Shown piece after piece: positions 31,989 through 63,155 of a stretch of 64,000 bases of DNA; the stretch's first letter is position 1; each line of letters begins with the position of its first letter. The notes beneath the pieces were generated by a model. The model searched no databases. It was not told the origin of the DNA and worked only from the letters and a program-made list of their open reading frames with translations. This stretch comes from Octopus vulgaris (lineage: Eukaryota). Made by a program: the position numbers and the translations under genes. The stretch is taken from positions 115,382,001-115,446,000 of the forward strand of contig OX597817.1 of the NCBI GenBank assembly GCA_951406725.2. The letters run 5' to 3'.

Positions 31989-32159
31989 CTGAGTATATAA
32001 ATTTAAAAAAACACCTTTTATCAATTCAACAATGAAAAAATTAAATCATAACATTTACAAAAAATTACATCTAATAGAAAATTAAGAATAAGATAAAAAC
32101 ATATTCTAATGATAAAGTAATATGCAAAATAAAAAATAAAACGTATATATTTGGTAGAA

Positions 32160-32239
32160 TAACTACGCGCGTTTCGTGGCTAAATTTAAGAAATAAGAGT
32201 AAAATCAATTCAATATAAATATAGTCACTCCTCAGGTTA
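32160..32239 (-). ncRNA. Type I hammerhead ribozyme, canonical core
   Basis: Minus strand: TAAC (stem I) CTGAGGA GTGACTA..TAGCCAC (stem II) GAAAC GCGC GTA GTTA (stem I'). Palindromic stem III ACGCGCGT; GUA cleavage triplet. Confidence 0.85.
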
Positions 32240-32346
32240 AAGATAAAAACAATAACATAATTAAATAAATAATCTTGTAAAATACAAAATATCTTAAATA
32301 TATTCTTGCGTAAATAATTATTTTATTATTTTATTATTTCTCTCTT

Positions 32347-32429
32347 TAACCTGAAGAGTAACTATATTTATATTGAATTGATTTTACTGTTATCATTTCG
32401 TAAATATAGCCACGAAACACGTATAGTTA
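32347..32429 (+). ncRNA. Type I hammerhead ribozyme, inverted sister copy, partly mutated
   Basis: TAAC CTGAAGA GTAACTATATTTA..TAAATATAGCCAC GAAAC ACGT ATA GTTA. Confidence 0.75.
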
Positions 32430-32830
32430 TTCTACGAAATATATACGTTTTATTTATTATTTTGCACATTACTTAATCATTGGTATATGTCTTTACCTTA
32501 TATCTAATTTTCTATAAGATATATTTTTTTCTAAATGGTATAATTTAATTTTTTCATTGTTGAATTGATAAAAGGTAGTTTTTTTTCCATTTTATGTATG
32601 TATATATATATATATATATATTACATTTTGTGAAATTTGATTTGGTATTTCGAAATTGAATTTTTCCCTGTAAGTTTGAAATAATATTCCCTCTTATTAT
32701 TATGTATATATATGCATATATATGTATATATATGTATATATATATATATGCATATATATGTATATATATATATATATATATGTAAAAATAAGACAAAATA
32801 GAAAATGCTATAATAATTTTATAGTGAACA

Positions 32831-32875
32831 TTTCAGTACCGGTTTCGGTCATTTTGAGACCTTTTCAACTGTAAC
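32831..32875 (-). ncRNA. Minimal type I hammerhead with a U3:A8 covariant core
   Basis: Minus strand: GTTACAG TTGAAAA GGTC-tcaaaat-GACC GAAAC CG GTA CTGAAAT. The C3:G8 pair is replaced by U:A; palindromic stem III ACCGGT. Confidence 0.78.
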
Positions 32876-33228
32876 GATTAAATAATTAAAAAATTAAATT
32901 TAGAAAAATTAGAAGAAAAGTTTTTTTAAGGGAATATTTCTATAGTAGTGTTCAGATATAAGTGGCATTCTGCTTTTCTCTGACTCCCTTGTTTGCACTT
33001 GTGTGTTGTGAGTTCTTGGTAGGGTAGATGAAGAAGAAGAATGCTGATGTGGTGGAAAGGGGGTGGGAAAGTCTGGGAGTGCCCTGATGGCCGTATTTTG
33101 AATGGTCAGTGTCGACTGGCAGTCTCAGTTTAATTCAGGATAATGTTTCTATTAATAGGCTTGTTTATGGAATTTGCGTAGGTGTTATACTGAAAAAGTA
33201 TTAGTGATAAAGTTAAGAGGTGGAAGGT

Positions 33229-33420
33229 GAAGAAGAAGAAGAAGAAGAAGAAGAAGAAGAAGAAGAAGAAGAAGAAGAAGAAGAAGCAGGAGAAGGTGAC
33301 GATGTTGATGACGATGATGATGAAGAAGAAGAAGGAGAAGGAGAAGATGATGATGATGGTGGTGATGATGACGACGACGATGATGATGACGATAATGATG
33401 AAGAAGAAGAAGAAGAAAAA
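33229..33420. repeat. (GAA)n/(GAT)n trinucleotide tract inside the PLE 3' UTR
   Basis: Direct reading; source of the spurious poly-E/D and poly-K ORFs. Confidence 0.95.
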
Positions 33421-33520
33421 ACCGAGAAGGGAGAATATGAATGGGTGAAAGTTAGTAATGGATTCTTTGGAATGTAATATTTGTGTGTATATATTTCTTT
33501 TATTCTAAAGTTGAGGTATA

Positions 33521-34430
33521 TTAATTGTTTGTCGTAGACCCGTTAAGAAGTGGTCTGTATTTTCTAATAAAGAGATTTTCTTTACTTATTCGTTGTATCC
33601 AGGTTGTATCGTCCCTAAATTGATAGAGGGGGAAAATCCTGAAGCTTGGTGTTTTTTTGTTGGCGCAAGTATCTATGTGTTGGCTAAAAGCTATTTTTCT
33701 GTTTTGGGGAATTTTTATCTGGGATCTGTGCAGGGCCATTCGTATACGCAAACCATTTTTCGTTTGGCCTATGTACTGCTCTTGACACCCGGAGCAGGTT
33801 AGTGAGTATATTAGGTTCTCCGAAGCACATGTGAAGTTGCTTTTCACTGTGAACCGTTGTCCCTGTTTGAAGGAGAACTCTGATCCCTCAATTAGATAGT
33901 CGCATATCCCGCAATTGGGTCTTCCACATTTTTTTACTGTCGGCTTCTGTGTTGAAGAGTGTATTCGGGCTTGTGTTAGAAGACTTTTCATGGATTTAGG
34001 CTGTCTCTTGCTTTTTATGATCGTGTGTGTTTGGAGGATTGTGTTCATTCTGTGGTCTTTTTTTAAGAGGGGTATGTTGTGGAGGATGGTGCTGAAGGCT
34101 TCGTTATTGAGGGGGTTGTGTGTGGAGATGTATGGTAAGGCTTTTGGTTGTAAGTTTTTCTTTGATTTGGGATGTCTCAGTTCCTTGATGTTAAGTTGAA
34201 GGGCACGTTGAATGCACTTGTCAATTAGTGAAGGTGGATAGTTCCTGGTGACAAGGGTATCTTTTAGTTCTTGTAGTCGTGTGTCTCTGGTGTTTGCGTT
34301 AGAGACTATAGTGCATATCATTTTTGCTAGATTGAAGGGGATATTCATCCTGGTGTGTCTAGGGTGGCATGAATTGAATGGAAGGTATTGCTTAGAGTCT
34401 GTAGGCTTATAATATATGTCTGTTTCTATT
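33521..34430 (-). CDS. PLE polyprotein C-terminal part (RT thumb, Cys-rich linker, GIY-YIG endonuclease); open but 5'-truncated
   Basis: The frame extends upstream of the listed Met as [25 protein letters not shown]. Linker [32 protein letters not shown]...RMALH...FSQH...[13 protein letters not shown]. The RT catalytic core is absent. Confidence 0.85.
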
Positions 34431-34475
34431 GTATTATTGGCTTATTGTATTATATATATATATGTATATATATGC

Positions 34476-61519: not shown

Positions 61520-61565
<46 letters not shown>

Positions 61566-61716
61566 GCTAAAGTATTACTGGTAGAAGAATTAGATGTTAT
61601 TTAAATCTAGAGAAAGTGTACGCCAATATGTGGTGGCTTAATAACGTATGTGATTGAGTATTATCGTGTAATTGCTTTTTGATTTAGATGTATTTCTCTA
61701 TTTTCTTATCTTGTAT
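60080..61716. mobile_element. ~1.6-kb non-coding segment with ~90-bp inverted ends and an internal hammerhead
   Basis: TACAAGATAAGAAAATGGAGAAATACATCTAAATCAAA...CCACCACATA (60080-60168) is the reverse complement of 61627-61716. A TA tract lies on the left; HHR at 60326-60442. Confidence 0.7.
60326..60442 (-). ncRNA. Type I hammerhead with a large loop 2 and a U4C change
   Basis: Minus strand: ATCT CCGAAGA GGCC [~85 nt] GGCC GAAAC AGCT GTA AGAT. Palindromic stem III ACAGCTGT. Confidence 0.7.
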
Positions 61717-61911
61717 TAGTAATTTGTGGTAAATCACTTTACCTTTGCCCATATAATACAGTAAATGAATCGATTGCATCGCAATCATTAACATTTATGT
61801 ATTAACTTTGTTGGGTACTTCAGTAGCAGTATATTGGATATATGTTATCCCGTGGAGGGTTGCATTTACAACCCCTATCTCAATTTATATATATATATAT
61901 ATATATATATA

Positions 61912-62050
61912 CACTGAGGCCTCGATATATGAATTAATACGCTTCCGGAGAACGCTCGTAAAGCGAAAACAAGTAAACAGAAAATAAAATTCCTAACAGC
62001 TCGTAACCCGGCATTTCGTAAAGCGGCTCTTCGTAAAGTGAGTAATCCAG
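61912..62050. mobile_element. Possible pogo/Tigger-type MITE
   Basis: TA-CACTGAGGCCTCGATATATGAA ... TTCGTAAAGTGAGTAATCCAG-TA; only weak terminal inverted similarity. Confidence 0.4.
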
Positions 62051-62120
62051 TAATCTATATAAGCCTGACAGTGGCCCGCGAAACTTTGAGTCACATGGAG
62101 CTGAATGGAGCTGTTTTGAG

Positions 62121-62181
<61 letters not shown>

Positions 62182-62444
62182 TTACTTGGAAATGGATAGG
62201 TCTCTTTCAATTACATAGTAAATAAAATATAATATAACATGTATATATAATATTGAATAAAAGTTTCAAAAAAGTTCTATTTTTAATTAGTATCAATAGT
62301 GAAGATTATTATCAATAACCACATTATAATTAATTCATAACTATAAGCCCATAATGTGGTTATTGACATTTAAAAGTATATTCTCGGCATATTTGGCATA
62401 GAAAATTTTTTTCTTTCGCCCTTATTTATGAGTTGTTTATATAT

Positions 62445-62615
62445 ATATCTGTAATATAACATGTGACAATTATTTGGTTTCCATAATAAAACTCCGACTT
62501 TCGGATGTCGGGCGGAAACCTGGACCGGAATCTCTTCAGGTTTCCACCCCGACATCCGAAACTCGGAAGTATTATTATGGCAACCGAATAATTGTCACAG
62601 ATTGTATTACATATA
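62445..62615. repeat. ~80-bp-arm hairpin; each arm contains the 3' half of a hammerhead
   Basis: TGTGACAATTATTTGGTTTCCATAATAA..TTTCGGATGTCGGGCGGAAACCTG pairs with CAGGTTTCCACCCCGACATCCGAAA..TTATTATGGCAACCGAATAATTGTCACA. The right arm reads GAAAC-TCGGAA-GTA. Confidence 0.88.
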
Positions 62616-62821
62616 AATTCCTATGTTTACATAATATCGAGGTTTCTTTCATTATTTTGTAATCTTACCGTTACTATTAATAATACATTGTATATATATA
62701 TATATTCTTTACAGATTTAGAGTAAAAATTATTAATTTAATAAACTAACCAATTTTACCAAGTAGTTTTCGGCATGGAAAAGAATCATATTCGGTAAAAA
62801 CTTATATAAAAAGTTTTTTTT

Positions 62822-63155
62822 CATATATAATTATAGCAATAATTAAGGGTTTAGCAACAAGTTGCTTGACCATATACCGAAAATTTTAGAAATAGCAGCC
62901 AAAAGACTGCTATTTATTTTTTTTACAAAATATGTCTTCACAGATAACAATATTTGTAACGCACATAGGCAAAAAGAAGACTGCTTGATTTCATTATTTT
63001 TCTTCTTTTTGCCCATGTGAGTTACAAATATTGTTATCTGGGAAGACATATTTTGTAGAAAAAAGAAATAACTGTCTTTTGGCTGCTATTTCTAAAATCT
63101 TCGGTATGTGGTCAATCAACTTGTTGCTAAACCCTTAATTATTGTTATAAATATA
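62822..63155. repeat. Near-perfect fold-back with ~155-bp arms and a ~20-bp spacer
   Basis: AATAATTAAGGGTTTAGCAACAAGTTG...GGCAAAAAGAAGA versus TCTTCTTTTTGCC...CAACTTGTTGCTAAACCCTTAATTATT; TA-rich ends. Confidence 0.93.

Follow-up and report, generated by a model that had tools for sequence, protein, structure and literature searches.

Penelope-like elements and related systems

According to Arkhipova et al. 2013 (PMC3846280) and Craig et al. 2021 (PMC8557442), Penelope-like elements (PLEs) form units in which a pseudo-long terminal repeat (pLTR) is accompanied by an adjacent inverted and 5'-truncated pLTR, with an optional tail on one side, and the head-to-head layout is given as the most frequent arrangement. 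Palindromes at the inverted junctions and AT-rich simple targets were described as well and were explained by self-priming on an antisense template (PMC3846280), and the bias toward (TA)n was linked to a CX2-5CxxC linker (PMC8557442). The origin of the tandem and inverted structures is named as unresolved in both papers. Here, we analyse a window of 64 kb of the Octopus vulgaris genome (assembly GCA_951406725.2, contig OX597817.1, positions 115,382,001 to 115,446,000 of the forward strand; coordinates below are counted from the first letter of this window), which harbors five inverted structures, named A to E. Four of them, A-D, are very probably dead, non-coding 3' stubs of different PLEs.

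Other systems come close to these structures. In vitro, PAc (Poseidon of Anolis), the single PLE protein assayed, was reported to nick and extend both strands of an AT-rich target that is not (TA)n. It is predicted to be dimeric, and its two reverse transcription (RT) start sites, downstream of the hammerhead ribozyme, bound the tail (Frangieh et al. 2024, PMC11167929). PAc nevertheless belongs to another clade, the cysteine linker carried by open reading frames (ORFs) of the window being described for Neptune and Nematis, and the main text on PAc does not address inverted insertions. Outside the PLEs, opposite-orientation joins of two RT products, including microhomology joins, were inferred for L1 in human (PMC11702581), and cDNA snap-back is reported as a junction class of R2 proteins (PMC11371274). 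These cases resemble the process proposed below in that a second target end primes RT, microhomology joins RT products, and a cDNA 3' end can prime on itself. L1 twin priming, in contrast, inverts an internal 5' piece without duplicating the 3' end, and involves neither hammerhead nor tail. Finally, the non-LTR retrozymes (PMC7229834; bioRxiv 10.64898/2026.07.22.740005) are, like the stubs, non-coding, contain a type I hammerhead and have a proposed origin in PLE pLTRs; they are however head-to-tail tandems, whereas A-D are single inverted pairs with decayed cores, and self-comparison detected no head-to-tail tandem units in A-D.

The published units of PLEs with an endonuclease (EN+) and the stubs of the window have in common the head-to-head layout, the junction palindrome, a tail at one end, AT-rich or (TA)n targets and a hammerhead near the 3' end. 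Unlike those units, the stubs measure 170-1640 nt and lack an ORF, their extensions span 40-95 nt instead of 30-40, and several of their hammerheads have long stem II regions. In terms of architecture, A-D are thus new members of a known PLE class, and the structures themselves are ordinary debris. Stubs of this kind may, though, be mis-annotated as miniature inverted-repeat transposable elements (MITEs) or as microRNA-like hairpins.

Five inverted structures in the window

The inverted structures were recovered by self-BLAST, as a gapped self-comparison of the window, combined with arm alignments. A preliminary description of this DNA had reported four mutually unrelated structures and a further fold-back near 62822-63155 (E). 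All five are real, with arms 81-95% alike, and the matches between them are only short and AT-rich. B and C, at 93-95%, are presumably the youngest. Within the 64 kb, neither a second copy of any of the palindromes nor a paralog of any of the A-E families was found.

Structure A (32005-32585) is a hairpin with arms of ~270-290 nt, ~86% alike (275 of 321 aligned columns equal; self-BLAST E 9e-179). Its centre, near 32295, measures 43 nt by a strict rule and ~7 nt when an imperfect inner stem is counted.

Rather than two arms around a 325-nt spacer, structure B is one hairpin centred at ~41600, in which the outer arms (41237-41334 and 41659-41754, 95% over 98 nt) are completed by an inner palindrome (41547-41654). 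A central loop of 16 nt (41593-41608, self-comparison) separates the long arm (41237-41592, minus strand), with a degenerate hammerhead read by eye at 41360-41404, from the short arm (41609-41754, plus strand; self-BLAST and arm alignment), in which ~210 nt including the hammerhead are absent. The short arm is made, in this order, of a ~46-nt inverted copy of the centre, an 8-nt filler that is locally templated, being repeated from just upstream, and the last 96 nt of the element, which end at (TA)n. On the other side, the unpaired stretch from the left arm end to a TA tract (41180-41236, minus strand) is a candidate one-sided tail. The right flank of B is also where one copy (41751-42298) of a 560-nt repeat begins; its other copy lies at 35907-36468, the two are 73% identical, and each starts at a TA tract.

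In C, the 3' part of the main copy (60078-60442, minus strand) comprises the hammerhead (60326-60442) followed by 250 nt up to (TA)n, and its terminal 90 nt recur in inverted orientation at 61627-61716 (plus strand; self-BLAST and arm alignment), where they are 93% alike and have no TA after them. The tails of B and C are guesses. Between the C arms (60078-60167 and 61627-61716) lies a spacer of 1460 nt that holds an internal (TA)20 and unrelated sequence, and it is for C that an origin by two independent opposite insertions of one family at a hot spot, or by later rearrangement, is most plausible. Such an origin would also be in line with the tendency of PLEs to insert side by side (PMC6765202) and with the single TA tract common to D and E. 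It is improbable overall, the other four structures displaying short loops and shared variants, and the lack of any family paralog elsewhere in the window making two strikes within a few bases unlikely. Two further features proposed for C were discarded: an 11-bp inverted repeat around the core (60417-60452), considered as a second fold point, is equalled in score by 25% of shuffles and has three similar stems elsewhere in the window, and a GIY-YIG remnant seen by eye inside C is not supported by the PLE protein profile.

Structure D (62443-62618) has arms 81% alike around a 14-nt central loop. Its loop-bearing arm (62443-62539, minus strand; motif read by eye, paralog contigs) carries the hammerhead core at the fold and a short family 3' end adjoining TA, whereas the inverted arm (62537-62618, plus strand; self-BLAST and arm alignment) is followed by a one-sided tail (62619-62687, plus strand) in which paralog contigs support family sequence up to ~62660-62683. 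Structure E (62823-63158; self-BLAST, arm alignment and contigs) is a hairpin with arms of 158 nt, 89% alike, and a 20-nt loop belonging to the right arm; its left arm is extended on one side by family sequence (62730-62822, minus strand), two paralog pieces among those listed ending at 62730. The right end of D and the left end of E, as indicated by contigs, thereby lie beyond the limits first assigned to them. The D tail and the E extension end at opposite sides of one short TA tract (62690-62705).

Hammerheads, orientation and TA tracts

Hammerheads were searched with a strict, stem-checked scan based on a core consensus, with reversed and complemented sequence as controls. Two sites were detected, both on the minus strand, in A (32235) and C (60438), against none in the controls. 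The A site, with a score of 7, corresponds to a minimal type I hammerhead in the left arm (32160-32239, minus strand), with a 53-nt stem II region and a palindromic loop III, and motif search and arm alignment identify a second, more decayed copy in the right arm (32347-32424, plus strand). In C, the hammerhead has one change in its core and a 90-nt stem II region. Those of B and D were recognised by eye: in B (41398, minus strand), stems I-III surround a core that shows a single change plus an additional base, and in D (62539, minus strand), both the core and the stem partners are backed by paralog contigs. In D itself, the core coincides exactly with the fold, which has cost it its stem I partner. 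The hammerheads that the preliminary description had placed in four structures are therefore present, as degenerate minimal type I motifs in A-D, but only in A do they occupy both arms. As for E, its earlier description as devoid of a clear hammerhead is borne out, since motif search and stem-checked scan found none on either strand of 62730-63158; the orientation of E is consequently undefined.

Besides, an Rfam scan of the window returned 143 matches, none at gathering score and nearly all of them microsatellite artefacts. The sole hammerhead among these (32818-32882, 19.7 bits, E 3.8) belongs to a separate, ORF-linked PLE copy described below. In A, C and this copy, stem III is short and its loop palindromic, which is the form described for PLE hammerheads (PMC6765202). 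Folding of monomers did not yield a full hammerhead for A, C or D.

In all four hammerhead-bearing structures, the reading direction of both arms is outward, an outcome expected by chance alone once in 16, and the inverted 5'-truncated copy stands head to head at the 5' end. The tails-out reading of these structures is thus confirmed, and the layout is already published for PLEs (PMC3846280, PMC8557442). The proposal that the arms mostly point toward TA tracts holds in part: among the 10 arm ends, four adjoin (TA)4+ and one more lies 15 nt away, compared to a background of 2% within 15 nt, but the other five are found at 52, 58, 72, 117 and 169 nt. B, C, D and E each have a single arm that adjoins TA. 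The self-complementarity of (TA)n, which the preliminary description invoked as a possible driver, is not needed in the light of the PAc data.

The D and E families

Family data cover positions 62185-63235, hence D and E, and arise from contig sets of two organisms, X1 (5152 contigs placed) and X11 (2213 placed), compared at 80% likeness; the rows listed comprise 15 of the 32 joints, 24 of the 730 loose ends and 16 of the 7493 pieces. Two raw-read runs, X22 and X23, gave 57 and 133 placed reads, of which 0 and 1 at 99% or more, and no read on D. A metagenome search with P0001 retrieved two weak loci (E 5e-4), which were not used.

The contigs of X1 and X11 show that D and E belong to multi-copy families without a fixed centre. 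At 62512, 46 contigs of X1 and 24 of X11 continue with family sequence through the D loop, keep the hammerhead core and then leave the inverted arm, whereas the fold of D is shared by one contig of X1 and two of X11, that is, 70 contigs departing versus 3 sharing. It follows that the D core is real, that the loop is part of the left arm and that the centre is not fixed. The D family also contains a 3-nt inverted match at the junction. In E, two of the listed pieces connect the loop with the right arm, while three continue past the centre with other sequence. Among the 15 joints listed, 11 cross a centre (5 in D and 6 in E), with central unpaired lengths of ~12-98 nt, as mapped through the arm alignment after exclusion of D-E joints, within-arm joints and joints to the repeat beyond 63160. 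The joints between 62706-62711 and 63167-63192 were rejected as E empty sites because their sides, 20-26 nt and TA-rich, adjoin a high-copy repeat, and the listed contig joints contain no reliable empty-site joint for D or E.

The outer ends of the D family are of two kinds. In X11, 28 contigs stop in (TA)n at 62438. Positions 62623-62644 are covered by 82-93 contigs in each run, and six of the listed pieces extend from inside the right arm to 62636-62683, which indicates that 3' ends of two lengths, short and long, exist in the family. In D, one arm has the short end and the other the long end, with its tail of 40-70 nt. The end pattern of E is the same, with an extension on one arm only. Overall, a one-sided tail with defined 3' ends is seen in D and similarly in E, is only suggested in B and C, and does not occur in A. 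A candidate target duplication of 13 nt at D (62433-62445 and 62688-62700, 12 of 13 positions equal) is TA-rich and weak.

Such data bear on whether these palindromes could be ordinary MITEs, or DNA elements of the fold-back type, that move as fixed units. Their symmetric shape and the TA on their flanks would suit such elements, as would the recurrence of the D centre in three contigs, the lack of a hammerhead in E, and the resemblance of part of E (63077-63130) to a ~56-nt unit that is tandem in X23 reads and that may link the E family to a satellite. A MITE with fixed length and centre is nevertheless ruled out for D by the 70 departing contigs, and the other centres and unequal outer ends of D and E, the hammerheads of A-D and the lack of a second palindrome copy in 64 kb make this explanation highly improbable for the whole set. 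Given the Penelope-type hammerheads of A-D, together with the variable centres and the lack of a fixed palindrome in the D family, A-D are best seen as retro-derived and not as MITEs. The earlier view of these palindromes as retro-derived structures with a MITE-like look is hence retained for A-D; E, which has no hammerhead, probably arose in the same way, its orientation left aside.

Proposed priming and joining of the two arms

That a single insertion carries two different 3' ends of its family favors two primings. Should both tail ends correspond to RT start sites, as the PAc data would suggest (PMC11167929), priming must have occurred twice in any insertion that has the two ends. Moreover, in D and E the short end sits on the loop-bearing arm, the one reaching further 5', and the tail of the other arm could therefore not be a copy of it unless trimming came later. 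On these grounds, the chances appear evenly balanced that each of A-D was inserted head to head in a single event into an AT-rich or (TA)n target, by two primings and a join through fold-back or microhomology. As to the mechanism taken separately, priming at both nicked target strands followed by such a join is a reading that we put forward tentatively, at slightly less than even chances, and the two primings already proposed in the preliminary description are kept with the same reserve. More precisely, the PLE protein, possibly as a dimer, would nick both target strands; one target end would prime at the inner RT start site, giving an arm without tail, and the other at the outer site, giving an arm with tail. 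The longer cDNA would then stop; its 3' end would anneal either to a short inverted match located 14-20 nt back or to the terminus of the second cDNA, after which the palindrome would be completed by repair. B, with its short inverted filler followed by a jump to a separate 96-nt end piece, resembles a join caught in two steps.

What fits poorly is the idea that the two cDNAs were truncated independently. The central unpaired lengths are at most 20 nt in three of the five structures and at most 43 nt in four (B 16, D 14, E 20, A 7-43), whereas a simple simulation of independent truncation, which assumes length distributions and in which the greater ease of noticing symmetric hairpins has to be kept in mind, gives centres this short in 0.3-4% of sets (P ~0.003-0.04). 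In addition, of 17 variant positions listed within the arms, 12 are private to one arm, and five rows, representing three mirrored sites, all in E, have a non-majority base in both arms, which implies that the E arms come from one source or were homogenised later. Taken together, the short loops and the variants common to both E arms indicate that the arms are coupled.

This coupling would equally be expected from one priming followed by self-priming: one cDNA molecule, or the antisense RNA template put forward in PMC3846280, would form a hairpin at a short palindrome and serve as its own template, after which trimming of one arm by the endonuclease would leave the tail on one side only. Self-priming is the published explanation of such PLE structures (PMC3846280), where ours calls for two primings, and snap-back is documented for R2 (PMC11371274); the 3-nt inverted match at the D fold agrees with it as well. 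On the other hand, the paralog centres of the D and E families are not confined to tiny loops, the copied arm in D and E holds sequence absent from the template arm, which imposes an extra trimming step, and in the PAc data the two ends of the tail coincide with RT start sites (PMC11167929). Self-priming with trimming is consequently a serious possibility, with roughly one chance in three, and two primings with a join are ranked above it.

Several observations weigh against the preference for two primings. Neither an intermediate, nor a fresh insertion, nor an empty site was seen, and the PLE protein profile, built from 70 proteins, revealed no PLE coding similarity in A-E. The short loops of four structures out of five and the three mirrored sites of E fit one self-copied cDNA equally well. 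The endonuclease could trim the tail from one arm, and the tail has indeed been ascribed to EN-mediated resolution (PMC8557442). A carries the same end on both arms, C, given its long spacer with internal (TA)20, may correspond to two events, and each joint is weak, the sides being matched at 80% likeness over 21-28 nt, with a single side of 75 nt.

It is conceivable, though rather unlikely, that tail and inverted copy are the marks of one single step, in which the two subunits of the RT-endonuclease dimer would use the two RT start sites, with fixed polarity, for priming at the two ends of the target, before a fold-back join over 14-20 nt. The corresponding polarity rule, according to which the arm reaching further 5' would derive from the inner start site and the shorter arm from the outer one, is equally doubtful. 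If true, it could be counted directly in a genome rich in unrelated stub families, since the polarity of the tail relative to the loop-bearing arm can be tallied and tells two primings apart from self-priming. In the literature searched, a two-priming model for the inverted copies of PLEs was not encountered, although older papers may hold one.

PLE coding remnants and other repeats

The window is AT-rich, of animal type (33% GC), and contains 107 (TA)4+ tracts. The PLE protein profile identifies three coding remnants, all on the minus strand, two of which have the cysteine linker ahead of GIY-YIG. The best preserved is a 5'-truncated ORF (33524-34441; profile match 33539-34450) covering the thumb region, a CX4CX2C linker, which is of the CX2-5CxxC type, and GIY-YIG, with an open frame of 306 codons and 60% identity to its best full-length relative. 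The PLE copy bearing it (32783-34441, minus strand) has a (TA)n tract at each end and a hammerhead (32834-32872, minus strand; Rfam HH9, below gathering score) located ~54 nt from a (TA)n tract on its 3' side. The gapped self-comparison of the window revealed no inverted partner for this copy, from which it can be deduced that the head-to-head layout is optional. The ORF has no DNA similarity to A-E and serves as context for them. The other two remnants, at 15544-16270 (profile match 15556-16270) and 21792-22615 (profile match 21819-22522), are broken, and neither a hammerhead nor an inverted copy was recognised in either.

Other inverted repeats occur in the window. Small-loop hairpins are found at 47806-47983 (68%), 17565-18023 (58%), 62312-62366 (perfect 16-bp stem, 23-nt loop) and 12858-12899 (14-bp stem); no hammerhead was found in them, and they may be older stubs of the A-D kind. 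Two inverted pairs of 80 and 190 nt (50340-51032 and 51945-53228), 73-75% alike, with long spacers and no TA flanks, are possibly old DNA-transposon ends. Motif scans detected no hammerhead in these two pairs nor in 47806-47983 and 17565-18023, and all four were excluded from the orientation count.

The remaining repeats include a near-complete LINE (long interspersed nuclear element) on the plus strand (1313-4398), presumably RTE-like, with endonuclease and RT domains and an ORF broken by one frameshift and one stop, and a decayed element of transposase-like appearance (34590-35770), flanked by two TA tracts, which may be mariner-like. Finally, a perfect direct repeat of 33 nt (13884-13916 and 15040-15072, spaced by 1156 nt) possibly represents a long target duplication; just ahead of its second copy, a hammerhead-like stretch (14990-15035, plus strand) displays a core and a 6-bp stem II with no proper stem I, and a small hairpin is centred at ~15037.

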